NCBI GenBank assembly: GCA_031414535.1 | Contig: JANNVQ010000014.1 | Coordinates: forward strand, 224,001-288,000 | From: Gemmatimonas sp. | Lineage (GTDB): Bacteria > Gemmatimonadota > Gemmatimonadetes > Gemmatimonadales > Gemmatimonadaceae | Reading direction: 5' to 3' | Length of the DNA: 64,000 bases | Notes under the pieces: model-generated | Told to the model about the DNA's origin: nothing | The model's input: only the letters and a program-made list of their open reading frames with translations | Database searches by the model: none | Position numbers and translations under genes: made by a program | Shown here: in pieces, positions 4,645-22,176 of the stretch | Layout of the letters: each line of letters begins with the position of its first letter | Numbering within the stretch: the stretch's first letter is position 1

Positions 4645-7490
4645 CGCGTCACCCGCAGGCCCACGCGCCATAGCACGCCAGGTGCGCGGCCATCCACCTT
4701 CTCACCGAACCCAGGATTCACCACGTAGGGAAGCGTAGTCACGCCGGTACCGGGGTTCACCGTCACAGAGCCCGTCGCATCAACCAACAACAGCGCCGCA
4801 TCTACCGGTGCGGTGTTGACGGCGAGCAGGTCCACGGCGTCCAGCACCAGATCCACGCGCCTCCCACCGATGTTCGCCACGCGGAACGCGGCGCGAACAT
4901 CCACGCTCTGCGCAAGCTCGCCGCGGCAGGCATTGCGCGCGGCAAACACACCGGACTTCAAGCAAGAATACTTGGCCAGTTGGGCGTCCATCCCCGGCAA
5001 TGCCGCATCCACGAACGCCGCGTCGTTGGTCCAATCGCCGTCGCCGTTGGCATCAACACCGCCGCGGAAGCCAGGCGTGAATGGAAGCCCCGAGCGCAGG
5101 CGATACAGACCGCCAATGCTGAACCAATCACTCAGACGCCACTCCAGCGCGACCATGGCACGGTGGGGTACATCAAGATCACTGCGGCCATCCGCCCAAT
5201 CGCGGCCGGCCAAACCATCAGGGAACGACGACTGCACGCGCCCAAGCTGCGGGAGATTGTCGTTCGTTTGGCTGTGTGTGTAGAATGCCGACAAGCTCAG
5301 GCCCGTCTCGCGCACGCGCTCCACGCCCACCGTGAGGCCCCAGTACTCGCTGCGGCCATCGTTCTCGAGCAGGTTCACGGCATCGAAGTCGGCGAAGCGT
5401 CGGTTGGACTGCGGCGTGACGACGAGCGCCGTACCGACCTGCTGCAGACTGCCAAACAGCGGCCGACCATCTTGATCTTCACCCGCCGCGAAGGCCGGCA
5501 GGTTCAGGTCGCGGCGGCGGCTCAATCCATCGGTCACGCGATACACACCAGATACCGACGCCCTCCAGTATCCGAGCGCGCGCGTGAGACCGAGCGAGAG
5601 GCGCTCGGTGCGCGTGCCACCGAACTGCGGCGACAGCATCGTGAGCGTCTGGCCCACCACTGGGGCCTGGCTCAGGCTGGGCACGGCATCCGTCGGCAGC
5701 GTGCCCACGCCGTACCGCACGCGGGCCGCACGGTCCAGCGCGAGTGCCTCGGCCATATCGCGCACGTCGGGCAGATCGCGGAAGGTGCCAGCGCCGCCCT
5801 CAAGGACCCACGCGGCCTTCTCGCCGAGCTCCCAGCGGAAGCCCAAGCGCGGCGACACCGCAGAGGTCCGCGGCGACACATCGGTGTTGTCGAGCCCGCT
5901 GAGGGCCAACCACTCTGCGTTCTCCTCGATGCGCGACACTGGCACGCCAAAGCTTTCCATCCGCAGGCCCATCGTCAGCTCTAGGCCCGACGCGAGTTGC
6001 CAATCGTCCTGCAGGATGAACGCCGTCTCGCGCAGTCGCAGCACGGCCCCTGCATCGGCGCTCTCGACGCCGCGCCACGCGGCGTTGGCCACGGGCAGCA
6101 AGCTCGGCGCTGTGCCAAACACATACTGCCCGTCACTGTCGCGCACGTACTCGGATTCAGCCCGCTGCGAGGAGGCAAGCACGCCCATCTTCAGCCGGTG
6201 GCGGCCGGCATCCATGTGCAGCAGCGCCGTCAGTCTCGGCGTGGCGCGCAACTCGCGGTGTGGCGTGCCCAGCGCGCCACCAAAGCGGGCGATGTCCGTG
6301 GTTGCGTACTCGCGTGCAAAGCCGCCCGCGCTGCCCTCGGTCCGGTTCACGTCCATCCCAAAGCGCCACTCGGCGGCCACGCGGTTCGAGAGGCGCGCCA
6401 ACACGTTCACGCTGCCCTGCCCCGCGATGCCGCTGTAGTCCGATCCGTAGTAGGAGGGAAAACCTGCGCGCTCGCCGTACCCGGTTGAGGTAAAGCGTCC
6501 GCCGCTCGCCTGCAGGCCAATCGCCAAGCGCTCGCTGCCGCGCCAATCAATGCGTCCAAACGCCGAGGCACGCTCGTCGGCGCGAGAATCCACGTTTATC
6601 GATTCGCTCCAGAAGTCGCGCTCGTTGCGCTGATAGTCGAACCCGACGATGCCCTGCGCGGTGTCGCCTTGCAGCGGGCCAGAGAGCAGGTAGCTGCCGC
6701 CGAGCGCGGCGGTGCCGCCTTCCGCGCCGACGACACTGCCCACGCGGCTGCCTCCTTGACGCGTCGAGGCGCGCACACCGACGCCTGTACCGCCGAGCTC
6801 AACGTCATAGCCCATCCCACCGACCGAAGCGGACGAGACCGCGCGCAGGGGCAGCGCGAGCCCAGCAGCATCGGCACCGCTGCCGGCCTGAGCCGCCGCG
6901 CCAGACGAACGGGCGCCATCAACGAGCATCGAAGTCATCCGCCACGGCAAACCTTCCACGCCGTACGCATCCGCGCCCACCGAGAACGCCGCAACGTCAC
7001 CACCGATGCGACGGGCTCCAGGAAGGTCGGCGTAGCCACGATCAAGCAACCACTGCCCGGGAGCGATGATGGCGCCGCGTGCTACGACGGTGTCTACGGT
7101 ACTCACCGGCGGAGTGGCCGGACGCAGCGTTGCCGCCAGGCGGACGGCCGCGCCCGCGACGACGCGCACGTCCAAGTGCACCACCGGACGGAAACCCACT
7201 TCCTCGACGGTCACGTCGTAGCGGCCACTGGGCAAAGCGTCAAAACGAAAGCGCCCGTCGTGCGACGTCAGGGTCCACTGTGTCGCTCCACCCTGACGGG
7301 ACACCACGCGCACTTCGGCCTCACCTAACGGTCGGCCATCGAGCGCGCGCACCTGCCCCTCGAATCGTCCCACGGCAAGACTCTGCGCTGGCAGCGCGAG
7401 TGGCGCGAACCAGGGCAAAAGCGTGAGAGTGGCGAGCCTAAGGCCGCGCGCAAGAACGTTCAAAACCTGCGGATGCTCGGATGGCGACAC
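4641..7490 (-). CDS. Oar-like TonB-dependent outer-membrane receptor with N-terminal carboxypeptidase-regulatory-like domain
   Basis: Signal peptide; GQVRALDGRPL...TSHDGRFRFDALPSGRYDV; barrel motifs ILQDDWQL, VSPRLGFRW, SGLPFT. Confidence 0.85.
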   Translation of the reverse strand: MSPSEHPQVLNVLARGLRLATLTLLPWFAPLALPAQSLAVGRFEGQVRALDGRPLGEAEVRVVSRQGGATQWTLTSHDGRFRFDALPSGRYDVTVEEVGFRPVVHLDVRVVAGAAVRLAATLRPATPPVSTVDTVVARGAIIAPGQWLLDRGYADLPGARRIGGDVAAFSVGADAYGVEGLPWRMTSMLVDGARSSGAAAQAGSGADAAGLALPLRAVSSASVGGMGYDVELGGTGVGVRASTRQGGSRVGSVVGAEGGTAALGGSYLLSGPLQGDTAQGIVGFDYQRNERDFWSESINVDSRADERASAFGRIDWRGSERLAIGLQASGGRFTSTGYGERAGFPSYYGSDYSGIAGQGSVNVLARLSNRVAAEWRFGMDVNRTEGSAGGFAREYATTDIARFGGALGTPHRELRATPRLTALLHMDAGRHRLKMGVLASSQRAESEYVRDSDGQYVFGTAPSLLPVANAAWRGVESADAGAVLRLRETAFILQDDWQLASGLELTMGLRMESFGVPVSRIEENAEWLALSGLDNTDVSPRTSAVSPRLGFRWELGEKAAWVLEGGAGTFRDLPDVRDMAEALALDRAARVRYGVGTLPTDAVPSLSQAPVVGQTLTMLSPQFGGTRTERLSLGLTRALGYWRASVSGVYRVTDGLSRRRDLNLPAFAAGEDQDGRPLFGSLQQVGTALVVTPQSNRRFADFDAVNLLENDGRSEYWGLTVGVERVRETGLSLSAFYTHSQTNDNLPQLGRVQSSFPDGLAGRDWADGRSDLDVPHRAMVALEWRLSDWFSIGGLYRLRSGLPFTPGFRGGVDANGDGDWTNDAAFVDAALPGMDAQLAKYSCLKSGVFAARNACRGELAQSVDVRAAFRVANIGGRRVDLVLDAVDLLAVNTAPVDAALLLVDATGSVTVNPGTGVTTLPYVVNPGFGEKVDGRAPGVLWRVGLRVTR

Positions 7491-7626
7491 GATGGCGAGA
7501 TGAGGACGGATCGAGAGGTACCGGCTCCAGTGCAGGAAACATACCGGCCAACAGACCTCTGTGTCATCCTGAAATCGCAGGAGCCGCCCACTGGCGATGC
7601 CTCCAAATCGGCACTAGCCTCCCCGT

Positions 7627-7926
7627 ATGCTCCCCCTTCCCTCCGCCACGGTGGTCTTCCAGCGCATTGATGACGGCGCCGTGCTCTTCGCGCCCGCCAC
7701 GGAGATCTACTTCGGCCTCAACGAAGTCGGCGCGCGCGTCTGGGAGTTGCTACCCCCCAAGAGCGACTCGCTCGACCAGCTTTGCGGCACGCTCGCTGCG
7801 GCGTACCCTGAGGTGCCCGCGACTGAGCTGAGGACAGACGTCGAGGAACTGCTCGCGCAACTCCTTCAGGAGGGACTCGTCACGCCGCCAAGCGGCGGGG
7901 CGTCTGATGGCCCGTCTGCGATCTAA
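7627..7926 (+). CDS. PqqD-family RiPP recognition element (lasso B1)
   Basis: YFGLNEVGARVWELL and DVEELLAQLLQEGLV; overlaps the B2 gene. Confidence 0.93.
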   Translation: MLPLPSATVVFQRIDDGAVLFAPATEIYFGLNEVGARVWELLPPKSDSLDQLCGTLAAAYPEVPATELRTDVEELLAQLLQEGLVTPPSGGASDGPSAI

Positions 7927-8356
7927 GATCGCGGACCGCCTCGCTGCACAGTTCGCGCTCCTGCGCGCCCGTCGGCTTCTGGCCACTGCGCCCATCGGCG
8001 CACTCACCACACGCCGAGTTGGAACGGCCCGAGTCGCAGACAGCGAGATTCAAGAGCCACCCCGCGCTGCACCTGAAGCGCAACTGCGCGCCGCGGCCTT
8101 GGGGGACGCGGTGCAATGGACCTCGACCCACGGACTGTTTCGTCCGTTTTGCCTCGTACAGGCGCTCGCACTGCAGGAACTCCTCTCCAAAGCGGGCATT
8201 CACGACAGTGAAATTCGCGTCGGGGTCCGGCGCGAGGGTAACTCGCTAAAAGCCCACGCTTGGGTGCGCTGGAACGGACAAGTCCTCGGCGACGACCCCA
8301 AGCACGTCAGCGAGTTCACCGAAGTGGACGACATTAGCGTCCTCGGTCTGCGATGA
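7907..8356 (+). CDS. Lasso peptide leader peptidase (B2, transglutaminase-like)
   Basis: Cys-His-Asp triad motifs CLVQALAL, AHAWV, LGDD. Confidence 0.92.
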   Translation: MARLRSKIADRLAAQFALLRARRLLATAPIGALTTRRVGTARVADSEIQEPPRAAPEAQLRAAALGDAVQWTSTHGLFRPFCLVQALALQELLSKAGIHDSEIRVGVRREGNSLKAHAWVRWNGQVLGDDPKHVSEFTEVDDISVLGLR

Positions 8357-8375
8357 TCACGCGGCAGCTCTCCTC

Positions 8376-10109
8376 ATGACCCGCATTTTCGTCCGTGCAG
8401 GCAGAGATACTCGGCCCGACGCTCCAGCAGACGCGGAGGCCTTGGGCTGGTGCGTGGTCGCAGACGCGACGCTGTACTACCAGACTGACTTGCGGTCGCG
8501 CATCGGCGGCACGGCAGGAAGTTCTGCCGAGCTCATCGCTCAAGCCATCGCGAAGGACTCACAACGTGCCCTCGACTGGCTCGAGGGTGATTTTGCGTTT
8601 GTCGCGTGGAAGCAAGACAGCGGCGAGATCATCGCCGCACGTGACTTCTCCGGCAAGCGTCCGCTCTTTTACGCCTCCGCGCCAGACGGTCTACTACTGG
8701 CAAGCGACGTCAGGGCACTACTCGCTGACCCAGCGGTCGACCGACGCATTGACCTCGCCCGGGTTGCCTCAGTGGCGGCCGGACTCTGGGCCCACGGTAG
8801 CGCCACGGGATACCAGGGTATTCACGAGCTCCCGGCCGGCTCCGTGTTGCGCTGGCGGCCCGGCAGCGCAGCGAGCATCACGCCGCACTGGAAGACACCC
8901 GAGCACATCGAAACGCGCCGCCAGCCACTCGACGAGGCCGCCGCAGAGCTGCGCGTCCTCCTCGATGCAGCTGTCCGCGAACGCCTCGCACCGAACGGGC
9001 GCACGGCAGTTTCGTTGAGCGGCGGATGGGACTCTACCGCCGTGTACGGAACCGCCAAAGCGCTCGGCGCGGACGTACACGGGGTAAGCGTCAGCTACCC
9101 TGAGGGCGATCCGGGCCGCGAAGACGAATTCATTCGCGAGGTCACGGCATTCTGGAAGACTTCGCCAGACTTTCTTGACGTTGACGACATCCCGCTCGCC
9201 AGTGATTGGAACGCTGAAGCCGTAGTGCGGCCGCTACCATTTGCACACGTGTATGAGCACTGGAACCGAGCCATCGCTACGCGTGCACGCGCCTCGGGAG
9301 CCACGGTTCTGCTCGACGGAGTCGGTGGCGACCAGCTGTTTCAGTGTGGCGACATCTTCCTCGCGGATTTGCTACGCGGCGGCCAATGGCTCGAGGCCGT
9401 ACATCAAGTGCGGCGACCAGACCGCACTCACGACTGGGCGCGTTTGAAGACTTGGGGCGTTGAGCCGCTGCTACCCGCGTGGTGGCGAGCACGGCGAGCG
9501 CGCCAGCAGAACCGCTTGTTCACTCAAGACTATCTCGAGCGCCTGCCGCCGCGATGGTTTCGGCACAGCTTTCTCCGCGAACATCAGCTCCTTGAACGTG
9601 AGCGCGCGGCACGGCCGCTGCGCCGCACGAGTTCTTTCGTGATGGCTGAAGCGCAGGCCTACATCGAGTTCGCGTACTTTCCCCGCGTGTTCGCGCTACT
9701 CAGCGGATTCGTGGCGGATGCCGGGCTAGAACTTCGCTCGCCCTTGCTCGATCAACGTCTGGTGCGGTTTGCGCTCCAGCGTCCGTGGAGCGACCGGGTG
9801 GATGGCGCTGAGACCAAGAACTTGCTCCGTCGCGCCATGCGCGGACGCCTGCCCGACAGCGTCCTCGCGCCGCGCCCACATCGCACTGGCACAACAAACG
9901 GCTATTTTCTACGCAGGCTTCGCGCGGACGCTTGGCCCGTGGCCCGCACACAGTTCAGTACGCTCCGCCTCGGCGAACTCGGGATCGTGGACCCACACGA
10001 ACTCGAGCGTGCGTGGCAGCACCTCCTCGAGCATGACGACGGCGAGCTCGCCGCACGGTTGTTCTTCACGTTCGCCACTGAACTCTGGCTTCGCTCACAT
10101 CATCCGTGA
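8376..10109 (+). CDS. Lasso cyclase (asparagine-synthetase-like C protein)
   Basis: GDFAFVAW, ARDFSGKRPLFY, ATP-binding SLSGGWDS, DGVGGDQLF, SPLLD; no N-terminal glutaminase Cys; adjacent to B1 and B2. Confidence 0.9.
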   Translation: MTRIFVRAGRDTRPDAPADAEALGWCVVADATLYYQTDLRSRIGGTAGSSAELIAQAIAKDSQRALDWLEGDFAFVAWKQDSGEIIAARDFSGKRPLFYASAPDGLLLASDVRALLADPAVDRRIDLARVASVAAGLWAHGSATGYQGIHELPAGSVLRWRPGSAASITPHWKTPEHIETRRQPLDEAAAELRVLLDAAVRERLAPNGRTAVSLSGGWDSTAVYGTAKALGADVHGVSVSYPEGDPGREDEFIREVTAFWKTSPDFLDVDDIPLASDWNAEAVVRPLPFAHVYEHWNRAIATRARASGATVLLDGVGGDQLFQCGDIFLADLLRGGQWLEAVHQVRRPDRTHDWARLKTWGVEPLLPAWWRARRARQQNRLFTQDYLERLPPRWFRHSFLREHQLLERERAARPLRRTSSFVMAEAQAYIEFAYFPRVFALLSGFVADAGLELRSPLLDQRLVRFALQRPWSDRVDGAETKNLLRRAMRGRLPDSVLAPRPHRTGTTNGYFLRRLRADAWPVARTQFSTLRLGELGIVDPHELERAWQHLLEHDDGELAARLFFTFATELWLRSHHP

Positions 10110-11041
10110 CCTCGCGTTATCTCGCCTTCGGCAGTCTGATGGAATCCGACATCGCCTTCCCCGACCTCGCGCTGGGTGGCGAGGGCGATGTACGCTGGCG
10201 AGTGTCGCACGTCGAGGCGCTCGCGCCGATGCACGAGCCGTGCGAACTTGGCCGCGAGACAATCTACGATGCCGTGGCCGCAACGCTCTACGCGCATCGT
10301 GACGGCCGTCGCATCGTGGTGGATGACACCGGCAGCTTCGACCTGCTGGCCGACGGCAGAATCCTCGTGGCTCCACTCGCCACGGCATCGGAAGCCTTCA
10401 TCAGGGCGCACATCCTTGGCCGCGTCCTTGCCACGGCTCTGCACACAGATGGCTGGTTGCCCTTGCACGCGAGCGCCGTGCTCACACGCGAGGGCGTGGT
10501 AGCGTTTCTTGGACCCAAGGGGATGGGAAAGTCCTCCTTGGCCGCGGCGATGGTCGAGGCAGGCGCACAGCTTGTCACGGATGACACGCTGCCCTGCCAA
10601 GCCAGCACGCCCCCCCGCGCTTGGCCAGGCATTCAGGCCTTGCGTGTACGAGACGATGTGCGCGAGGCCCTCCACCTACAGAACGGTAATCCGCTCGACG
10701 TCGACGCCCGACGCTTTTTGGTGTCGCTGGGCGCCGAGCGCCGCTCCCATAAGCCTGAGCCGCTGGCTGCTTTGTTTTTACTTGCGCCCGCCGAAGATGA
10801 ATTGCGTGCAGAGGCCGCCGTGCGCACGCCATTCGCACCCGTGCTTGGCGCGGCCGCCATCACCGCGCACGTGAAGTCCGGCGCAATGTTCGGCCCTGCC
10901 GCCGCTCCCGCGATGCTCGCACGCGCCGCGCAGATGGTGCACCTCGTGCCGGTGAATCAACTGTCCATCGTGCGCGACCTCGCGCGACTTCCCCAAGTCG
11001 CACAGACGGTCCTCGATTGGTACGGGGGTCCGCCGCGGTGA
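10106..11041 (+). CDS. HprK-related kinase (lasso peptide kinase-like), copy 1
   Basis: LHASAV, Walker A GPKGMGKS, TDD; GTGA overlap with the cyclase. Confidence 0.85.
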   Translation: MTSRYLAFGSLMESDIAFPDLALGGEGDVRWRVSHVEALAPMHEPCELGRETIYDAVAATLYAHRDGRRIVVDDTGSFDLLADGRILVAPLATASEAFIRAHILGRVLATALHTDGWLPLHASAVLTREGVVAFLGPKGMGKSSLAAAMVEAGAQLVTDDTLPCQASTPPRAWPGIQALRVRDDVREALHLQNGNPLDVDARRFLVSLGAERRSHKPEPLAALFLLAPAEDELRAEAAVRTPFAPVLGAAAITAHVKSGAMFGPAAAPAMLARAAQMVHLVPVNQLSIVRDLARLPQVAQTVLDWYGGPPR

Positions 11042-11925
11042 TTGTCCAAGTGGACGGCATCGGCAAATCTTTTGCCGTGACGCCAGGCTGGGCCGCGCTC
11101 GTGCGAGCGCGAGCGGAGCCACGCCGTGTACTCGATGCGGTCAGCTTCTCCGTGAAGGAAGGCGAGATCTTCGGCTTGCTCGGCCCCAATGGCGCCGGCA
11201 AAACCACACTGTTCAAGATTCTCGCAACCTTGTTGGCTTCGGACGAAGGTGAGGCGCACATCGGTGGCTTCTCGGTGAGCGACGACGCGGCAAGTGCGCG
11301 AGCCTTGATTGCGCCGGTGCTGGCGAATGAGCGCTCGCTCTACTGGCGATTGTCCGCGTACGAGAACCTGCGGCTGTACGCCGTGCTCCAAGGTTTGGCG
11401 GCGCATCAGGTGGATGCGGAGATCACGCGCGTGCTCGCGGCCACTGGGCTCAGCGATACCCCGCCTGCAATGGTTGGCACTTTTTCGTCGGGCATGCGCC
11501 AGCGACTGCTTATTGCGCGCGCGCTCCTAGGACGTCCACGCGTGTTGTTACTCGACGAACCCACGCGTAGTCTCGACCCCATCTCGGCGCGCGACTTCCG
11601 TCGCTTCCTCCGTGATTCAGTAGTCCGCGCGGAAGGCTGCACAGTACTGCTCGCCACGCACGATGCCGGTGATGCCTGGGAGCTGTGCGATCGCGTGGCC
11701 GTGCTGCATCGCGGTCAACTCCTCGCCGTTGATGAGACCACCAAGCTGCGCGCGCGATTCGGCGGGCCCCAGCATGCCTTGATTGTGAACTCCGCGGAGA
11801 GAGATCACGCTCGAGCACTCTTAGAAGCCGGCGGAGTGAGCGTCATGCAGGAAGCCCCGCACGCCGCATCGCTGGCCGAACTCATTGAGCGGGCCATCGC
11901 CGATGCAGGGGCTCCGCATGCGTAA
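11038..11925 (+). CDS. ABC transporter ATP-binding protein
   Basis: GPNGAGKTT, FSSGMRQ, LLLDEP and ATH motifs. Confidence 0.95.
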   Translation: MIVQVDGIGKSFAVTPGWAALVRARAEPRRVLDAVSFSVKEGEIFGLLGPNGAGKTTLFKILATLLASDEGEAHIGGFSVSDDAASARALIAPVLANERSLYWRLSAYENLRLYAVLQGLAAHQVDAEITRVLAATGLSDTPPAMVGTFSSGMRQRLLIARALLGRPRVLLLDEPTRSLDPISARDFRRFLRDSVVRAEGCTVLLATHDAGDAWELCDRVAVLHRGQLLAVDETTKLRARFGGPQHALIVNSAERDHARALLEAGGVSVMQEAPHAASLAELIERAIADAGAPHA

Positions 11926-12718
11926 AGCGCTCGCCCTCGCACGTGTTGGCTGGTTGAGTGCCACGAGTTATCGCGTGGCCACGTTGCTGCAGTTCGTGGG
12001 AGTACTCGCTACCATCGTGCCGGTGTATTTCGTCTCGCAAGCCATGCAGGAATTGGCTGCCTCGAGCATCCAACGAGAGGGTGGTGCGTACTTCGCGTTC
12101 ATCGTGGTCGGCATCGCGAGTACCTACATCGTCGCTGCGGCGACCACCGCCGTGTCGAGCGCGATTGCATCCAACCTCGGCTCCGGTACCTTCGAGGCCT
12201 TGCTTGGCACCCGCGCTTCTATCGTGTCTATCCTGTTTGGACTCTCGCTCCACGACTTGGCGATGTCGGCATTGCGTGCCCTCGCCTTGTTGGTAGGAGC
12301 AGCCGCGTTCGGCGCCGACATCCATTGGTTGGCACTGGTGAGCGTCCTACCAATCGTGGCGCTGGTAGTAGTTGCGTATGCTGGTGTCGGATTGGTAGCG
12401 GGGGCGCTGGTCCTCGCGTTCCGCACCGCCGGTCCGCTCGTCAGCATTACCATTGCACTCTCGGGATTGCTGGGCGGTGCGTACTACTCCACGACCGTCG
12501 TACCTGGCTGGCTGCATCCACTGACGGAGTTCGTACCGCTGACGCACGGACTGCGCGCCACGCGCGCCGTGTTGCTTGGTGGCGAAGGTCTCGCGACCAC
12601 CTGGCCAGATGTTCTGCGCTTGGCGAGTAACGCTCTGTTGCTCGTGACTGCGGGTGTGATTGCCTTCGCATTCGCCCTGCGTCGTGCGCGCGGCAACGGC
12701 TCGCTCTCTCAGTACTGA
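11918..12718 (+). CDS. ABC-2 type exporter permease
   Basis: About six hydrophobic segments; GTFEALL and PLTHGLRATR. Confidence 0.9.
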   Translation: MRKALALARVGWLSATSYRVATLLQFVGVLATIVPVYFVSQAMQELAASSIQREGGAYFAFIVVGIASTYIVAAATTAVSSAIASNLGSGTFEALLGTRASIVSILFGLSLHDLAMSALRALALLVGAAAFGADIHWLALVSVLPIVALVVVAYAGVGLVAGALVLAFRTAGPLVSITIALSGLLGGAYYSTTVVPGWLHPLTEFVPLTHGLRATRAVLLGGEGLATTWPDVLRLASNALLLVTAGVIAFAFALRRARGNGSLSQY

Positions 12719-13902
12719 TGAGCACGCTTTCGCCGTCGCCCGAGCTACGCTTCGTTTTCCGCGCCGCCGATCCTCGCTGCGAAGCGCAGGAGCTGCTCGG
12801 CATCGCCGCGCAGATTCAGGATTGGCAGCGAGTCGCGCGCTTGGCAGAATCGGAAGGTGCGACGGCCGTGCTCTGGCGTATGCTGCGGCCAGTTGCCGCA
12901 CAACTGCCCGCGGAGTTCGTGATTTTCCTGCAGGCACGCACGATGCTCGCGGATTTTCGCATGCAGCGCCTCGCGCAGCGCGCGCAGGAAACCGTGGCTG
13001 CGCTTCGGGCTGCCGGCATTGACGTGCTGCTCCTCAAGGGAGCCGCCGTAGGCGCGCTTTGCGACCCCACGTTTCGTCTGCGACCGATGACGGACGTTGA
13101 TTTGTTGATTGCCGAAGCGGACGCGGAGCGAGCCAAGGCCTGCGTGCTGGGTTTGGATTGGATGGAAATGCCGGAGCCGCGTCTGCGCGAGCTGTTAGTG
13201 GGGCATCAACATCTGCCGCCGTTTGTGGATCCCACGCTCGAGGGCCTGCGGCTCGAACTGCACACGCGTCTACTGCCAGCGGATAGTTCGTTTGCATTGG
13301 TGGCGTCTGATCTCTGGCAACACGCGAACCTGGCACCGCCGCAGTTTGCCGGCGCAAAGGTCCCGGATCTCGCAAGGCTGGCCGTGCACACCGCCGTGCA
13401 TTTCGCATGGCAACACGAGATGCGCTTCGGTCCCTGGCGAACGTTTCGCTCGTTTGCCCTGCTCACGCAGCACGAGAGCTGGGATTGGCAGGCCTTCGTT
13501 GCGATTGGCCGCGACGCGCGGGCCAGCACCTCCTGCTACTGGACGCTGCGGATGGCTCGTACACTCAGTGGTGTCGACGTCCCCCGCGCGGTGTTGGCAG
13601 CGCTCGCGGCACCATCGCCTGAGTTTGTGCGTCGCATCTTGGACCGCCACTTCACGGCCGTCTCCGATCCGCTCGAGCGTCCGCCGTCACCGTCGGATCG
13701 TCTGGCAAGGCTGTTGTGGCGCATGGCCCTGCGCCCGCGATGGAGCGGACACCGCACGGTGAGTCGGTTCGATCCCGAACGACGTTGGGAGCGTGCGTTC
13801 AGTGAGACGGCTGAGCCGGCGAGCATGTCGCGCGTCAGGCGCCACGTCGGAGTTCGTGGAGACTGGTGGGCTTTTCTCACGCGTACGATTGCGGGGCGAT
13901 AG
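12718..13902 (+). CDS. Nucleotidyltransferase family protein (NTP_transf_5-like, lasso-cluster type)
   Basis: LLKGAA...RPMTDVDLL and LELH motifs. Confidence 0.85.
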   Translation: MSTLSPSPELRFVFRAADPRCEAQELLGIAAQIQDWQRVARLAESEGATAVLWRMLRPVAAQLPAEFVIFLQARTMLADFRMQRLAQRAQETVAALRAAGIDVLLLKGAAVGALCDPTFRLRPMTDVDLLIAEADAERAKACVLGLDWMEMPEPRLRELLVGHQHLPPFVDPTLEGLRLELHTRLLPADSSFALVASDLWQHANLAPPQFAGAKVPDLARLAVHTAVHFAWQHEMRFGPWRTFRSFALLTQHESWDWQAFVAIGRDARASTSCYWTLRMARTLSGVDVPRAVLAALAAPSPEFVRRILDRHFTAVSDPLERPPSPSDRLARLLWRMALRPRWSGHRTVSRFDPERRWERAFSETAEPASMSRVRRHVGVRGDWWAFLTRTIAGR

Positions 13903-13913
13903 CGGCGCGAACT

Positions 13914-16262
13914 TTACGGACGGTCTACAAGACGTTCGAGTCGCTCAAGACGTGCCTTCAGGTCGTTCACTTCCGAGCGCAGTGTAGCGTTCTCGGCCTT
14001 CAAGGCATCAGAACGCAGAATGAGTTGCTGGACGGCAAAGAGATTGATGCCGTCAATGTCCACGAGCGTGATGGTGCGATCGCTGGTGCCGAGTCCGAAC
14101 GCCGCGCGAAAGTCCTGCGCGGTAGGTCCGACGTGACGCACGCTCGCGTTTTCCGTGGTGTAGCTCCACTCCTCGATTGGCATCGTGCGGATGCTTGAGA
14201 GCACCTGCTCGCCGTCGAGTGCAGTGAAGCTCTGCTTGCGATTGCGGTCGGAGAGGGAGGTCCATGAGCCGCTGCCTGGCGTGAGTTCGACACCGCTCGT
14301 CATGGCGCTGTTGGAATAGAGCGTATAGCCACCAGCTGCGCGCACGACGAACTGATTGTCTGCAGCGGCCGTCACGTTGGTGGTGGTCGAGTTGTCGCCG
14401 AAGACCAGTGCACCCTCTCGTCCGTTTGTTGAAGCCGCTGATCCGAGGGCGACGGATTGAATGCCGCTCGCGATTACATCCACGCCGATGGCCACCGCGC
14501 CAAGAGCAGATGCCTGAGGACCGAGCCCGATTGCGACGGATCCGACACCGGATGACTGGGAGGAGTTGCCGAGGGCGATGCTGCCGGTGTTAGATGCGGT
14601 GGTGAGGTATCCCACGGAGAAGGCAGCCAGTCCGCTCGCGACCGTAGTGCTTCCCATCGCAATCGAGTTTTCTCCGGTGGCCTGCGTTGAGAAGCCGAGC
14701 GAAACTGCCGACGCGGCCGTGGCGCGAGCGAGACTGCCAATCGCGAGGCTCGCCTCGCCACTGGCTAGCGTGTTGTTGCCGAACGCGGTGGAGTAGAGGC
14801 CGATGTTGGCATCGTTCCACTCGCTTAGAGTTCCAGCGTTATCGAGGCGTCCAGCGCGAATCGAGGCCTTGCGCGGATACCACAGGAAGCGCGAGCCCGT
14901 ACCAGCCGGCGCCAAATCGCCTGAGTTGATCGCGCCGCCCGTGGCCAAAATCGGGTTCGTGCCGATGGTGAGGCCGAGCGCTGAAATACGACCGGCCGCG
15001 AACGCACCATCCGCATCACGCTGCACGATTGCATCCGCGGTGTTCAGCGCCGTACCTGAGGCGTTTGTGCCGGCGGGCCCTTGTGGGCCGACGTCTCCCT
15101 GGAGTCCCTGAATTCCCTGAATCCCTTGAATTCCCTGCGGGCCAGCAGGGCCGGTTTCGCCCGTGGCTCCGGAATCACCTTGAACACCTTGAAGGCCCTG
15201 AAGGCCCTGCGGTCCCTGAGGACCTGCAGGGCCGGTGGCACCCGCTGCACCTGCAGGACCAGCGTCTCCTTGGATTCCTTGTGGGCCCTGAGGGCCGGTG
15301 GCACCGGTCAGGCCTTGAAGACCCTGAGCGCCCTGCGGGCCGGCTGGGCCCGTCGCGCCCGCGGCTCCGGAATCGCCTTGAACCCCCTGTAGGCCCTGTA
15401 GTCCTTGCGGACCCACAGGACCTGCCGGCCCTGTGGCACCTACGGCACCAGCAGGACCAGCATCTCCTTGGGCACCTTGTGGGCCCTGAGGGCCGGTAGC
15501 ACCGGTCAGGCCTTGAAGACCCTGAGCGCCCTGCGGGCCAGTCGCACCGGCAGCGCCAGCGGGACCAGCGTCGCCTTGAAGACCCTGAAGACCCTGGGGA
15601 CCAATAGCGCCAGCCGGCCCAGTCAGACCCTGCGGCCCGGCAGGACCAACCGCGCCGGCAGCTCCAGCTGGACCAACATCCCCTTGAAGACCCTGGAGAC
15701 CCTGCGGTCCCTGCGGGCCAGCGGCACCAGTCGCGCCGGCCGTGCCCGTGGGTCCGGTTAAACCCTGCGGCCCGGCAGGGCCAGCAGGACCAACTTCACC
15801 CTGCAATCCCTGCGCACCCGGAACGCCTGGAACACCCTGCGGTCCCTGCGGTCCCTGAGGTCCCTGAGGTCCAATCGCGCCCGCCGCGCCAGCCACACCC
15901 GCTGCACCAGCCACACCCTGCGGACCCGTTGCACCCTGCGCACCAGCCGGACCCTGCGGCCCCACCGGACCCTCAGACGTCCACGTAAACAGCACGTGCG
16001 TCGTCGCCACACAAGTCGTCGGCAGCCCCGCCGCGCCGACTCGATACACCGTGCCCGTCGTCGGCACGAAACACGCACGCAGAGTATCCGCCACGATCAA
16101 GGCGCCGGAGAACGCTGCACCGGCTCCTGCCATCGCAAACGAGGAGGAGGCGCTCAGGGAAACACCGAGCACCGCGGCAATTCCAAGCGCCGTGCCACGA
16201 AAGGTTGTGCGAAGTCGAGTAGACAACTGAAAGCTTCCTGCGAAAAGGGAGTTGAGCGACAT
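13914..16262 (-). CDS. Secreted collagen-like fibre protein with YadA-like head repeats and C-terminal peptidase S74 intramolecular chaperone domain
   Basis: Hydrophobic N-terminus; two-Cys cap; 101 Gly-X-Y triplets; 14-residue ASGxxSxAxG repeats; SDRNRK...HVGPTAQDF...coiled coil. Confidence 0.9.
15063..15971 (-). repeat. Uninterrupted collagen repeat, 101 Gly-X-Y triplets (909 bp)
   Basis: Counted from GPV to GTN; 909 nt = 303 aa. Confidence 0.95.
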
Positions 16263-16296
16263 CTCTTGGGAAACACGGCGCCACGGATCGCGAACT

Positions 16297-16689
16297 TCAG
16301 CCGTTCACAATCCAGGTCCGAGCGAACTGCAACGTGAGACGGAGCACTTCTACTTCGGGCGCCTTATCCGCGCTCGCGCCGCCAGCCAAAGTGTTGAAGG
16401 CCTGCACAGTCGCATTGAATGCCGTGCACGCAGCGGCGCGATCTGCCACGGCTACCGCCGACTCAAGCGCCGCGAGTTGGACGTCCACTGCGGGCGGCGC
16501 GGCCAGCGTCGGGAGCACACGGTCGCGCGCATCCTCTAACGCCGGACGTAGCGCCGCAGCGTTCGTGACCGTGTGCTGGAGAGGGGTGCCCAGTGCGAGA
16601 GCCGTACAATCAATTTGCGGCTCCGTTGGCGCTTCCGTACAGGCGGCGAGCCCGGCAAGCAACGCGAGGCCGAGCAGTCGACTTTTCAC
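16297..16689 (-). CDS. Small helical lipoprotein upstream of the collagen fibre gene
   Basis: [17 protein letters not shown] lipobox; GTG start; two further Cys residues. Confidence 0.75.
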
Positions 16690-16861
16690 TTAGATTTTTC
16701 TGTGATGGATTGCGGGAGAGAACCGTCTTGCTGTCCAGTATGCAATCTCCGTGCTGGAACCTAGCCGAGCCGTATCGGCCAGCACACCACGGGCTTGGGC
16801 AATCGGCAACCCATTCCTGGGCGCCAACGGGCCTCGACTTGTTGATGCGTGTGCACATAGT

Positions 16862-16879
16862 TGTTGCGAGAAAGCAACA
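16862..16879. promoter_or_regulatory. Inverted repeat TGTTGC-N6-GCAACA (TGT-N12-ACA), candidate enhancer-binding-protein site
   Basis: Perfect 6-bp arms about 115 bp upstream of a sigma54-like promoter. Confidence 0.45.
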
Positions 16880-16992
16880 GTCCCGTGCGTGATGTGGGTC
16901 ACGCGGGGGATCCTGGAGCCGTCACTGTCGCTTAAACTATTGTACAGCAAAGCTTTAAATATCACCGCTATAATTTCTCATCCGTGCTTGAG

Positions 16993-17009
16993 TCGGCATC
17001 AGTATTGCA
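16993..17009 (+). promoter_or_regulatory. Sigma54-type -24/-12 promoter for the lasso precursor
   Basis: TCGGCATCAGTATTGCA gives GG-N10-GC, about 50 bp before the start codon. Confidence 0.6.
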
Positions 17010-17057
17010 CTAGTCGTGTCCTGACTGGCCCCCTACTCAGAATTCCAGAGGATGTTG

Positions 17058-17234
17058 ATGTATCAGAAGCCCCAGCTCCAGAAGTTCGGTACCTTCCGCG
17101 AGCTCACACTCCTCGGTCTCAATAGCTCCACCGATGGCGCCGTCATTTTCGGCATCGGATCCCCAGGTTGCTCCACCACCATCGGGAAATGGACTTGGGA
17201 AATTGGCTGCCCTTCCGGGCCGCGCTCCTCCTGA
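17058..17234 (+). CDS. Lasso peptide precursor (58 aa)
   Basis: Leader YQKPQL (YxxPxL) and GxxxELT; Asp at core position 7/8; RBS AGAGGA; own terminator. Confidence 0.9.
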   Translation: MYQKPQLQKFGTFRELTLLGLNSSTDGAVIFGIGSPGCSTTIGKWTWEIGCPSGPRSS

Positions 17235-17272
17235 ACCAGCGGCACATCGCGTAAACCTCAGTTTGCGCCACC

Positions 17273-17311
17273 ACGAGCCCCGAGCCTCTCGCTCCGGGCT
17301 CGTTTTTCTTT
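17273..17311 (+). terminator. Intrinsic terminator after the precursor gene
   Basis: ACGAGCCCCGAGC / GCTCCGGGCTCGT stem (one mismatch) followed by TTTTCTTT. Confidence 0.8.
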
Positions 17312-17373
17312 CCCCGCCGCGACAGCATACTTCCCCAGTCGCGTTGCGCCCATAATTCCCCCGCTCCACCACG

Positions 17374-18303
17374 ATGCCGCTCTACTCGGCCTACGGCACA
17401 CGGCTCGAATCTGCCATCGAGTTTCCAGAGCTACCGCTCGCCAGCCGCGGACCGGCACGTTGGCGCTTCCGCATTGACGCCGAGCTTCCGGCAATGCGGG
17501 ATCCCGAAGAGCGCGGGTCGGAACTCATCCACGGCGACGTCTACGCGAGACTCTTCGCGCACCGCCGTGGCCTGCGTGTCTGCGTGGACGACACCGGCGA
17601 CTTCGATATCGCGCCCAACGGCAACATCGTCGCTACCACGCGCCCAGACGCGTGGGACGACTTCGTCCGGAATCATCTATTGGGCCGCGTCCTCGCCGTC
17701 GCGATGTTCGAAGCCGGCTGGCTACCGCTGCACGCGTCCGCCGTCGATACACCCGAGGGCGTCATCGCGCTCCTCGGACCCAACTCCGTAGGAAAATCTG
17801 CGCTCGCGATTGCACTCACTAATGCCGGCGCCACGCCAGTCGCTGACGATACGCTTCCCGTGGAATCGGGCACGCCACCCTGCGCTTGGCCGGGGTTACC
17901 CAACGTCCGCATTCGTGAAGACGTACGGGCTGCCCTAGACTTGCCCCGCAGCGGACTAGACACGCACGAAGGCAAGACCATCCTCGCGCCGGCGCCTAAT
18001 CACCATCCGAGCATGTCGCCTCGCCCGCTTGCTGGCATCTATTTGCTCGCGCCCAACGAGAACCTCGCGCGTAAAGCCGCCGTGGTGCGCACGCCCTTCG
18101 CACCCGTGCTCGCAGCACCGGCCATCGTTGCGCACGTTCGCGCCGGCGCGATGCTCGGCCGCGGCGCAGTCGCCACCATACTCCAGAGAGTGTCGCCAGT
18201 CGTGAGTATGGTGCCCGTGCACCAACTCTCGGTCTCCCGCGATCTGTCGCGGCTGGAGGACGCCGCCCGAGAGATCATGAGTTGGTACGCGGTCACCACC
18301 TAG
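17374..18303 (+). CDS. HprK-related kinase, copy 2 (paralog of 10106-11041)
   Basis: LHASAV, GPNSVGKS, ADD; shares VRTPFAPVL, DDTG and HQL/NQL blocks with copy 1. Confidence 0.85.
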   Translation: MPLYSAYGTRLESAIEFPELPLASRGPARWRFRIDAELPAMRDPEERGSELIHGDVYARLFAHRRGLRVCVDDTGDFDIAPNGNIVATTRPDAWDDFVRNHLLGRVLAVAMFEAGWLPLHASAVDTPEGVIALLGPNSVGKSALAIALTNAGATPVADDTLPVESGTPPCAWPGLPNVRIREDVRAALDLPRSGLDTHEGKTILAPAPNHHPSMSPRPLAGIYLLAPNENLARKAAVVRTPFAPVLAAPAIVAHVRAGAMLGRGAVATILQRVSPVVSMVPVHQLSVSRDLSRLEDAAREIMSWYAVTT

Positions 18304-20446: not shown

Positions 20447-20489
20447 GCGCGGGGGACAGGCCAAGTGTCTGTCCCCCGTGCTATTTTTT
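20447..20489 (+). terminator. Intrinsic terminator
   Basis: GCGCGGGGGACAGGC / GTCTGTCCCCCGTGC stem followed by TATTTTTT. Confidence 0.85.
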
Positions 20490-20493
20490 GCCG

Positions 20494-22173
20494 ATGCCAG
20501 CCATTGGACCCGCGTTGACCCCTGCTGAAGCATCCCAACGTCTGCGCGAAATGGCGGAGCGCTGGGCTGCCAATATCGATGCCACCGAGCGCGGAGCGTT
20601 TCAGCCGTGGTTCATCGAACTGTGCGAGGCGCTCGGCGTACCCAAGCCTTCCCAGACCTCAGACTATCAGTTCGAGCTCCCCGTGCGCGTGGTGGACCGC
20701 GAGGGTGAACTCGCCACGAACTTCATTGATGCTTGGCACACGGGGCACTTTGCGATGGAAGCGAAAATGTCCGAGCCGGGGCGGCAGAACGATGCGCTGC
20801 TCCGCAAGGCATTCGGCCAGGTGCGCACCTACGTCTCGCACGTTCCCGGTACGCCGCCGCCGTATTTGATGGTGGTGGACGTGCCGCGCACGCTCATCGT
20901 CTGGGACAAGTGGTCGGGCAGCTACGGTGACTTCGGCGCAGGGCGCCGCATCGCCCTCAGCAGCCTGCACGAGCGTGCAGACGACATCGCGCTCTTGCAG
21001 GACATCTTCGCTCGGCCCGAGGCTCGCGACCCGCGCGGGAGGGCTCAGGCGGTGACGAAGGAGATTGCTTCGCGGCTCGCCGCGCTTTCCGCGGCGCTGG
21101 AAGGTCGTGGATTAGACCAGGAGCGCGTCGCGCGCTTCCTGATGCGCTGCGTGTTCTCCTGTTTTGCTGAAGATGTTGGACTTCTGCCTGAACAGTTGTT
21201 CCGCAAGACGCTTGAGGCCGCGCGCAGTTCCGGCGATGCCACACGCCTCAAGGCCGCGCTCGAGCTACTGTGGAAGACAATGGACGAGGGCGGAATGTTT
21301 GGCGCAGAGATGCTGCATCGGTTCAATGGACATTTTTTCAAGACGCGTGAGGCACTGCCGCTTGAGCCTGCCGATGTCGCGCTGCTGATCGAGGCTACGT
21401 CATATGATTGGTCTCGTGTAGAGCCGAGCATTTTTGGCACGCTGCTCGTGCGCGCGCTCGACCCAGCCGAGCGGCACAGGCTGGGCGCCGAGTACACGCC
21501 GCGCGAGTACATCGAGCGACTCGTTGAGCCAACTGTGGTGGAGCCCATCCGCGAGCGCTGGGTGGCGGTGCAGGCCAGCGTCGTGCAACTCGAGGAGAGC
21601 GGCAAGAAGAAGGACACTGAGGCCGCCGTGAAGGCGCTGCTCGAGTTTCGCGGCTGGATGCGGACGCTGCGCTTTCTCGACCCCGCCTGTGGCAGCGGCA
21701 ACTTTTTGTATGTGACGATGGCGGCGGTGAAGCGCATCGAGCACGAAGTGTTGAACGAGTTGCAGCGCTTGAGTGGGGGCCAGGGTGGACTCGTGCTCGA
21801 CGAGGTGCATCCGCGGCAGTTCTTCGGCATCGAGATTAAGCCTTGGGCGCGCGAGATTGCTGAGCTCACGCTGTGGATCGGGTATCACCAGTTCTGGCGC
21901 GAGACGCACGGCGGGCGCACGCCACCGGATCCGATTCTTGAGGATACCGGCACGATTGAGTGCCGGGATGCGATTCTCGCGTATGATGAGATTGTGCATC
22001 GGCCGGAGAAGGACCGGCCGGATCCGACGCCGCGGATTGTGCATCCGGTGACGGGAGAGTTGGTGCCGGATCCTTCGGCGAAGTTGCCGTACTATGAGTA
22101 TGTGAATGCGCGGCCGGCGGAGTGGCCCGAGGCGGATTTTATTGTGGGGAATCCGCCGTACTTGGGGTCCTAG
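20494..22173 (+). CDS. MmeI-like type IIG restriction-modification enzyme, N-terminal part (nuclease, helical region and MTase up to NPPY); ends at an in-frame TAG
   Basis: FID...EAK nuclease motif; FNGHFF; GAEYTP; FLDPACGSGNFL; GNPPY followed by TAG. Confidence 0.85.
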   Translation: MPAIGPALTPAEASQRLREMAERWAANIDATERGAFQPWFIELCEALGVPKPSQTSDYQFELPVRVVDREGELATNFIDAWHTGHFAMEAKMSEPGRQNDALLRKAFGQVRTYVSHVPGTPPPYLMVVDVPRTLIVWDKWSGSYGDFGAGRRIALSSLHERADDIALLQDIFARPEARDPRGRAQAVTKEIASRLAALSAALEGRGLDQERVARFLMRCVFSCFAEDVGLLPEQLFRKTLEAARSSGDATRLKAALELLWKTMDEGGMFGAEMLHRFNGHFFKTREALPLEPADVALLIEATSYDWSRVEPSIFGTLLVRALDPAERHRLGAEYTPREYIERLVEPTVVEPIRERWVAVQASVVQLEESGKKKDTEAAVKALLEFRGWMRTLRFLDPACGSGNFLYVTMAAVKRIEHEVLNELQRLSGGQGGLVLDEVHPRQFFGIEIKPWAREIAELTLWIGYHQFWRETHGGRTPPDPILEDTGTIECRDAILAYDEIVHRPEKDRPDPTPRIVHPVTGELVPDPSAKLPYYEYVNARPAEWPEADFIVGNPPYLGS

Positions 22174-22176
22174 CGG

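Follow-up and report, generated by a model that had tools for sequence, protein, structure and literature searches.

A 64,000-nucleotide stretch of the Gemmatimonas sp. assembly GCA_031414535.1 (contig JANNVQ010000014.1, positions 224,001 to 288,000 of the forward strand; hereafter the window) was analysed for lasso-peptide biosynthesis, and very likely carries a lasso cluster of the kinase- and nucleotidyltransferase-containing (paeninodin/pseudomycoidin) type, laid out in two units, whose product is predicted to be phosphorylated on its last serine and is likely to be decorated further there, with sugar. A preliminary description of the same DNA had reported a complete kinase-containing lasso cluster with two kinases and a nucleotidyltransferase, and this was upheld by matches to Pfam and NCBIfam profiles, by conserved catalytic residues and by a tree of the cyclase. 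The same profile searches recovered every gene that it had named, each at the position listed below. As read from the sequence, the core genes are all present and intact and have their catalytic residues.

All coordinates are window positions, and gene starts are those of open reading frames (ORFs) taken from the first possible start codon. Seven tightly packed genes (B1-B2-C-K1-ABC-ABC2-N) occupy positions 7627-13902 of the forward strand, with neighbours either overlapping by 1-41 nt or lying 19 nt apart. The precursor gene A (17058) begins 3,155 bp downstream of the end of N (13902), a distance that had been put at about 3.1 kb, and is followed by a second kinase gene. The ABC exporter that had been described in the operon is present, but as two genes, one for a DrrA-like ATPase and one for an ABC-2 permease. 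The genes of the two units are as follows.

7627..7926, forward strand: B1, PqqD-like recognition element (RRE) of peptides made by ribosomes and modified after translation (RiPPs), 99 aa; Pfam PqqD PF05402, 65.5 bits (cut-off 23.4)
7907..8356, forward strand: B2, transglutaminase-like leader peptidase, 149 aa; Pfam Transglut_core3, 68.1 bits (cut-off 26)
8376..10109, forward strand: C, Asn-synthetase-like macrolactam cyclase, 577 aa; Pfam Asn_synthase PF00733, 124.9 bits, and GATase_7, 51.1 bits
10106..11041, forward strand: K1, HprK-like peptide kinase, 311 aa; Hpr_kinase_C, 19.4 bits, below the cut-off of 33.3
11017..11925, forward strand: DrrA-like ABC transporter ATPase, start codon uncertain; Pfam ABC_tran, 105.6 bits
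11885..12718, forward strand: ABC-2 type permease, start codon uncertain; Pfam ABC2_membrane, 45.6 bits (cut-off 26.9)
12718..13902, forward strand: N, enzyme with the NTP_transf_5 nucleotidyltransferase fold, 394 aa; Pfam PF14907, 102.4 bits (cut-off 31.2)
17058..17234, forward strand: A, lasso precursor, 58 aa; NCBIfam lasso_leader_L3 on the 60-aa ORF 17052-17234
17374..18303, forward strand: K2, second HprK-like kinase and paralogue of K1, 309 aa; Hpr_kinase_C, 17.6 bits, below the cut-off of 33.3

The precursor (MYQKPQLQKFGTFRELTLLGLNSSTDG...PRSS) passes the NCBIfam model NF033521 lasso_leader_L3 with 26.6 bits (cut-off 19). As judged against its relatives, its start is most likely the ATG at 17058 (MYQKP...), which is preceded by an AGAGGA motif 6 nt upstream. 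Thirteen positions (Y2, P5, F10, G11, F13, R14, L16, T17, G20, D26, G27, C51 and S58) are invariant in 21 homologues, with C38 nearly so, and a similar ORF is present in 22 of 24 related loci, the two without one being cut contigs; A is therefore not a chance ORF. One homologue already carries the NCBI name 'lasso RiPP family leader peptide-containing protein'. The C-terminal residue is Ser in all 21 close homologues and in 20 of the 23 precursor-like ORFs of related loci, the others ending in V (L043), F (L049) and T (L050).

The leader, MYQKPQLQKFGTFRELT-L, displays the YxxPxL...G...T motif, of which the Thr at -2 is described as conserved and critical in lasso leaders (PMC10368454). When Thr17 is placed at -2, the predicted core runs from L19 and would comprise 40 residues (LGLNSSTD...RSS), with an 8-residue ring between Leu1 and Asp8 and the invariant Gly at position 2. 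Alternatively, a core starting at the invariant Gly20 would comprise 39 residues and is predicted to form a 7-residue ring between Gly1 and Asp7, a type of ring known from huascopeptin (PMC13352647). With either start the C-terminus is Ser-Ser.

Six residues of B1 (G17, E26, Y28, W39, D71 and L84) are invariant in 22 homologues; against the PqqD models of NCBIfam that are specific to lasso clusters (cut-offs 70 and 80) the protein falls short, with 40.5 and 31.8 bits. B2 matches NCBIfam NF033537 lasso_biosyn_B2 with 73.6 bits (cut-off 33), and its triad of C82, H117 and D129 is invariant in 21 of 21 homologues. C starts MTRIFVRAG, without an N-terminal MCG nucleophile, and its loop S215-G216-G217-x-D219-S220 is conserved in 22 of 23 rows, whereas the two other Asn-synthetase homologues of the genome (26% identity) start MCGI and MCGF and have the glutaminase nucleophile. 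A search of PDB sequences with C returned distant enzymes of the Asn-synthetase family only. In a tree built without characterised enzymes, in which one AsnB-like row was entered twice and the L001 row was dropped, C falls within a clade of cluster-linked cyclases, as sister to the cyclase of a genome of the same genus (G010), and apart from the AsnB-like genes with a support of 100 in the SH-like approximate likelihood ratio test (SH-aLRT). Within the scope of that tree, this position settles in favour of the cyclase a check proposed in the preliminary description, namely whether C groups with true AsnB or exopolysaccharide (EPS) amidotransferases.

The same evidence bears on the proposal that the Asn-synthetase-like gene encodes an EPS/PEP-CTERM-type amidotransferase and that the locus modifies a surface polymer rather than a peptide. 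A weak match to the NCBIfam XrtA/PEP-CTERM amidotransferase model (105.8 bits against a cut-off of 816.9) and a polysaccharide deacetylase/DUF3473 gene upstream would agree with it. C nevertheless lacks the N-terminal Cys nucleophile, is split from the AsnB-like genes of the genome by the branch with support 100, is flanked by B1, B2 and a kinase and has a matching precursor in the same locus, and this proposal is extremely improbable.

The genome (3.70 Mb in 58 contigs) holds one precursor, one B1, one B2 and one cyclase, so that A, B1, B2 and C must work together. The exporter ATPase scores 201.8 bits against the NCBIfam drrA subfamily, below its cut-off, and 16 of the 24 related loci have it in the same place. 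The statement that no isopeptidase is seen held good for the 41 ORFs scanned between 1 and 51.5 kb, among which members of the signal-peptidase family, including the SpI type, were likewise not found.

K1 and K2 are 49% identical over 302 aa, and the residues H121, K142, D159 and D160 of K1, corresponding to H120, K141, D158 and D159 of K2, are invariant in 25 of 25 homologues, from which both kinases look active. In published accounts of lasso kinases this His-Lys-Asp-Asp motif is conserved and essential, PadeK acts on the precursor before cleavage and phosphorylates its C-terminal Ser, and as many as four phosphates are added by ThcoK and SyanK (PMC9266682); the D158A/D159A variants of PsmK are reported as inactive (PMC6993621). 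A search of PDB sequences with K1 gave no informative match (best E 0.14), and the ESM Atlas returned unnamed or 'HPr kinase' clusters from several phyla, which were treated as a lead only. In the kinase tree K1 is sister to the G010 kinase (support 100/99), and K2 together with its orthologue on the metagenome contig L061 is sister to that pair (98/96). The approximately unbiased (AU) test, applied to a group that was named after a first tree had been seen, rejected the grouping of K1, K2 and the L061 K2 without G010 (p = 0.012). Because K2 branches outside the K1/G010 pair, it is older than the split of this species from G010. A and K2 are under purifying selection, with ratios of nonsynonymous to synonymous substitution rates (dN/dS) between the window and L061 of 0.11 and 0.17, respectively, at a dS near saturation.

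For N, the D126-x-D128 motif is invariant in 18 of 18 homologues. An AlphaFold model calculated from 18 sequences, with a predicted local distance difference test score (pLDDT) of 88.4, has a Pol-beta-type nucleotidyltransferase core. In VIA-align, residues ~81-285 of the model match both MenT1 (Z 12.1, root-mean-square deviation 3.3 over 174 residues) and ANT(2'')-Ia (Z 10.8-11.9); the latter matches include the entries 4xje and 5cfs (Z about 11), both of which the authors of the PsmN study named for PsmN (PMC6993621). A further alignment of the core is with FKRP (Z 9.6). A Foldseek search of the PDB with the model gave no match at E <= 0.001, a search of PDB sequences with N gave no informative match (best E 0.48), and no literature linking 'PF14907' with 'lasso' was found. 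PsmN is described as an uncharacterised nucleotidyltransferase with essential D134 and D136; the Ser of pseudomycoidin is phosphorylated up to three times, and PsmN is needed for the addition of one or two hexoses onto the phosphate (PMC6993621).

Taken as a paeninodin/pseudomycoidin-type lasso pathway, the locus would operate as follows. The 58-aa precursor would be transcribed from its own unit and, still carrying its leader, would receive phosphate from K2 and/or K1 on the hydroxyl of its C-terminal Ser. Through its YxxPxL motif the leader would be bound by B1, which would hand the peptide to B2 for cutting after Thr17-Leu18. After adenylating Asp26, C would link this residue to the freed N-terminus, closing the Leu1-Asp8 ring, or the Gly1-Asp7 ring if the cut falls one residue later. 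A bridge inside the tail would connect the two conserved cysteines (Cys38 and Cys51), the arrangement of class IV peptides. N may extend the phosphate with another group, in the way that PsmN attaches hexoses, and the ABC-2 pair would export the product.

Several observations weigh against this reading. The site of leader cleavage is ambiguous, in that placing Thr17 at -2 requires a core whose first residue is variable (L, W or V among the 21 close homologues, and also I, A, Y, G, M, T or Q in related loci), while the following Gly20 is invariant. In a 2026 review the longest tail is that of pandonodin, whose 33 residues also make the longest lasso peptide cited there (PMC13352647); a core of 39-40 aa is longer, and further trimming is therefore possible. 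The best NCBIfam model for C, the lasso cyclase NF033535, is matched with 173.5 bits, far below its cut-off of 525, and the kinases lie below every curated cut-off, both for Hpr_kinase_C (19.4 and 17.6 against 33.3) and for HprK_rel_B (29.2 for K1 and 21.7 for K2, against 200). A scan for sigma-70-like promoters found none before A or B1, with 2 sites in total against 1.2 expected. Pseudomycoidin made without K and N is reported not to be a threaded lasso (PMC6993621), so that threading is not guaranteed here.

This last report would also suit a mature product that is a linear, unthreaded or uncyclised polyphosphorylated peptide, with B1, B2, K and N acting as they would in cyclase-less relatives and for the linear polyphosphorylated peptides (LPPs) of Bacillota. 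So would two related loci (L038 and L048) that read A-B1-B2-K...N with no cyclase between B2 and K, of which L038 has a very similar precursor that keeps the Gly and the Asp, and the kinase, RRE and nucleotidyltransferase that LPP clusters are described as sharing with paeninodin-type clusters (PMC13381572). In the window, however, the operon holds an intact cyclase with a conserved ATP-binding loop, which has co-evolved with the cluster and is sister to that of G010, Asp26 and Gly20 are invariant, and no SpI-type peptidase was met among the ORFs scanned. The genome that carries L038 (G308, of the same family) has pieces of a cyclase (50% identity) at the ends of two other contigs, and so may not lack one. 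A linear product is accordingly held to be very unlikely. The two cyclase pieces lie at C40:25949-27028 and C104:100583-101161, and L038 itself is on G308:C55 with the order A-B1-B2-K-ABC-ABC2-N.

The split of the lasso genes into two units was examined against the intervening features, which are listed here together with a predicted attenuator.

13914..16262, reverse strand: collagen-like fibre protein, 782 aa; Pfam Collagen, YadA_head and Peptidase_S74
16297..16689, reverse strand: lipoprotein-like ORF, 130 aa, upstream of the collagen-like gene; signal-like N-terminus followed by ...LAGLAAC
17273..17312, forward strand: predicted attenuator between A and K2, consisting of a terminator-like hairpin with a T-run; terminator scan

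Gene order was compared at 24 related loci. In 12 of them A lies between C and K (B1-B2-C-A-K-ABC-ABC2-N), and the C-A-K order is also found in the pseudomycoidin (psm) cluster. A lies directly upstream of B1 in eight, which include those of the three other kinase-carrying genomes of the same genus (G010, G294 and G395); the nearest relatives with this arrangement are L035, L036, L037, L001 and L003, and three of the eight (L038, L044 and L048) have no cyclase right after B2. One locus from another family (L053, G356:C1) has A at 16667-16852, ~3.2 kb downstream of N, and no second kinase. The remaining three yield no clear order, L002 and L004 being cut contigs and L042 a complex locus in which kinase and B1 genes each occur twice. 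In L042 (G029:C5:220000-239999) both kinases are HprK-like and are accompanied by a cyclase and by single copies of B2 and N; this locus may combine a lasso cluster with a cassette that lacks a cyclase.

The locus of G010 (L035) is the closest point of comparison, its C being 55-57%, K1 61-62%, A 80% and B1 65% identical to those of the window, and its flanks match: a nucleoside transporter gene comes directly after N, and an outer-membrane protein gene borders the opposite side. It differs in that an acyltransferase gene and a He_PIG/LRR surface protein gene separate A from the outer-membrane gene, that A lies directly upstream of B1, and that it has a single kinase and neither a collagen-like nor a lipoprotein gene. 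The order collagen-like (reverse), lipoprotein (reverse), A, K2 was found only in the source genome and in two metagenome contigs from different records (L061 and L062), whose A, K2 and lipoprotein are 88%, 76% and 65-69% identical to those of the window and whose precursor ends in PRSS; L061 continues, as does the window, with genes for a Pr6Pr membrane protein and a nucleoside transporter. L061 and L062 are nearly identical and so count as one further lineage. From these comparisons, the split layout is conserved and specific to this lineage, not a one-off.

The preliminary description had the precursor displaced by a collagen-fibre operon. A collagen-like gene does lie between N and A, but in the nearest relatives A is upstream of B1, not downstream of N, and an insertion between N and A therefore cannot explain the position of A. 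Nor did a simple insertion displace the precursor, since K2 is an old paralogue under purifying selection with its catalytic residues kept; A and K2 make up a separate conserved module with an old paralogous kinase. The order may have arisen either by duplication with reciprocal loss or by transposition of A. No remnant of A was found upstream of B1 and no second match to A in the genome, comparisons by blastn around A and B1 with six relatives gave similarity only in coding sequence and in ~36 bp before B1, and the 139-bp spacer between A and K2 has no room for B1, B2 or C.

These data also bear on the possibility that A and K2 are the leftover of a second, decayed lasso cluster and that the B1-N operon has lost its own precursor, in which case the locus would make nothing or K2 would be redundant. 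The position directly upstream of B1, where the nearest relatives have A, is empty here, the branching of K2 outside the K1/G010 pair fits an old duplicate cluster that has lost B1-B2-C, and one related metagenome-assembled genome (MAG) carries two such clusters (L002 and L003). Set against this, A and K2 are intact with the low dN/dS relative to the L061 lineage given above, K2 retains all four catalytic residues, the gene order (in L061 and L062) and the hairpin after A are kept, and the intact B1, B2 and C have a single precursor in the genome to serve. Decay of this kind is judged unlikely. The MAG in question (CAYPYY01) has L002 and L003 on separate contigs. Their kinases are nearly identical and a nucleoside transporter gene is close to each (79% and 86% identity to that of the window), as could result from a recent duplication or from a bin that mixes two strains.

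A more ambitious version of the lasso reading would take the detached A-K2 unit for a module of precursor plus own priming kinase, with K1 and K2 dividing the work, for example by starting and extending a phosphate chain or by acting on one terminal Ser each. The product would then be the longest lasso peptide yet, of 39-40 residues, with a disulfide in its tail and a doubly modified phospho-glycosyl end. This version is put forward tentatively and regarded as doubtful.

The hairpin at 17273-17312 folds with a z of -5.98, and none of 200 shuffled sequences folded as well. A GC-rich hairpin with a U-run but a different stem sequence follows A in six of the eight sequences folded (the window, L061, L035, L036, L001 and L003), whereas L038 has a weak run after its hairpin and L037 has none. 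The structure may be an attenuator through which precursor RNA stays more abundant than the message for the downstream enzyme. Upstream of A the sequence aligns poorly with those of L061 and L062, and a promoter motif common to them was not apparent.

The collagen-like gene differs from its neighbours in the GC content of third codon positions (0.62 against 0.71-0.83). Matches to its C-terminal part came from 6 of 101 genomes in the family, G010 not among them, and do not adjoin lasso genes where this was checked; five loci around such matches, viewed with 1.5-kb flanks, contained no lasso gene and no homologue of the lipoprotein. The idea that the collagen-like gene works together with the lasso genes was on these grounds rejected as unsupported, and the gene is probably outside the pathway. 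The encoded protein combines a signal-like or transmembrane N-terminus with ~350 residues of GXY repeats, further repeats that resemble a YadA head, an intramolecular chaperone domain of the Peptidase_S74 family and a coiled coil at the C-terminus, and resembles a phage-fibre-like or adhesin-like protein that is sporadic in the family. The lipoprotein-like ORF has no match in Pfam or NCBIfam.

The assembly is supported by Logan contigs of run X1 (possibly the source sample), which cover 7000-15269 and 15510-18072, and by a contig of X2, from the same study, which covers 16124-16992 with zero differences. The sole break in this coverage is the collagen repeat region. Upstream of the cluster lie the polysaccharide deacetylase/DUF3473 gene and genes for CarboxypepD_reg outer-membrane proteins, and downstream lie genes for a Pr6Pr membrane protein, a nucleoside transporter and an MmeI-family protein. 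The view that the cluster is embedded in a surface/EPS locus is weakly true, the neighbours being the deacetylase and outer-membrane protein genes upstream and the nucleoside transporter and restriction enzyme genes downstream. In Bacilli, paeninodin-like clusters have been observed within capsular polysaccharide loci (PMC13381572). Two AsnB-like amidotransferase genes with an MCG start lie 30-50 kb upstream, outside the window (G000:C14:191966-193423 and 174301-175944), and are possibly part of an EPS locus. The MmeI-family restriction-modification gene (20488-23871, forward strand) encodes N-terminal, helicase-spacer, methyltransferase and target recognition (TRD) domains and is interrupted by an in-frame TAG at 22171-22173, the ORFs 20488-22173 and 22177-23871 sharing one frame.

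The closest cyclases in the genome collection are those of MAGs of uncultured Gemmatimonas sp. (51-54% identity), which supports the probable Gemmatimonadota host of the preliminary description, more closely a Gemmatimonas-like one. Relatives of K1 (E <= 1e-10) were found in 76 of the 401 Gemmatimonadota genomes sampled, a tally that counts the source genome and G157, and in 43 of 147 genera. The novelty claimed earlier was overstated, given this frequency in the phylum and the lasso name that NCBI already gives to the precursor of a relative. The accompanying statement that no product of this kind has been characterised from such a host did stand, as far as titles, the beginnings of abstracts and passages of one survey extend; a marine survey reports lasso biosynthetic gene clusters in 29 Gemmatimonadota MAGs (PMC11316326). 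A relative of K1 thus occurs in about a fifth of the sampled genomes of a phylum for which no characterised lasso peptide was found in that literature, and the locus is a clean, complete candidate for heterologous expression. It could address the question whether a core of 39-40 residues, longer than the 33-residue record in the review cited above (PMC13352647), can be threaded, whether two paralogous kinases act differently on one precursor, and the nature of the group that an NTP_transf_5 enzyme adds to the phosphate, a question shared with PsmN and LppN.

Among known systems, the parts list of the pseudomycoidin cluster (psmCAKB1B2ND) of Bacillus pseudomycoides, as described in PMC6993621, is the same as that of the window, the likeness being drawn from the description rather than from an alignment with Psm sequences. 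It comprises a Ser-ending precursor, an HprK-like kinase with an essential Asp-Asp, split B1 and B2, a cyclase, a nucleotidyltransferase with an essential D-x-D, of which N is a probable counterpart, and an ABC exporter. In the window, by contrast, the order B1-B2-C-K1-ABC-ABC2-N is separated by two unrelated genes from the A-K2 that follows, K1 has a paralogue in K2, the exporter is a pair of genes in place of the single ABC-type psmD, the predicted core has 39-40 residues with two conserved cysteines, and the host belongs to Gemmatimonadota, not Bacillota. The paeninodin cluster (padeCAKB1B2D) of Paenibacillus dendritiformis and the kinases ThcoK and SyanK (PMC9266682, PMC5067487) share the His-Lys-Asp-Asp motif with K1 and K2, PadeK again being likened by description. 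The paeninodin-type B1, an RRE of 99 residues like B1 of the window, binds the leader and hands it to B2. The pade cluster as described differs in having no nucleotidyltransferase, one kinase, and a precursor that adjoins the cyclase and kinase.

The lpp clusters of Bacillota (PMC13381572) share an HprK-like kinase, a discrete RRE, a nucleotidyltransferase and a leader motif of the YxxP type, and are reported often to stand beside paeninodin-type lasso clusters and inside polysaccharide loci. As described, they use an SpI-type signal peptidase and no cyclase, and their kinase acts on Ser3 of the core, whereas the window has B2, a cyclase and one RRE. Pandonodin resembles the product predicted here in its long tail with a Cys-Cys bridge inside it, but has 33 residues and no phosphorylation in the account given by the review (PMC13352647), against a predicted 39-40 residues and a phosphorylated end. 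The type of cluster is already known from the published paeninodin and pseudomycoidin systems (PMC9266682, PMC6993621) and is common in the phylum, and the locus is an expected member of it. What sets it apart is the conserved detached A-K2 unit, the presence of two active-looking kinases, the ABC-2 exporter and the very long, Cys-containing predicted core.

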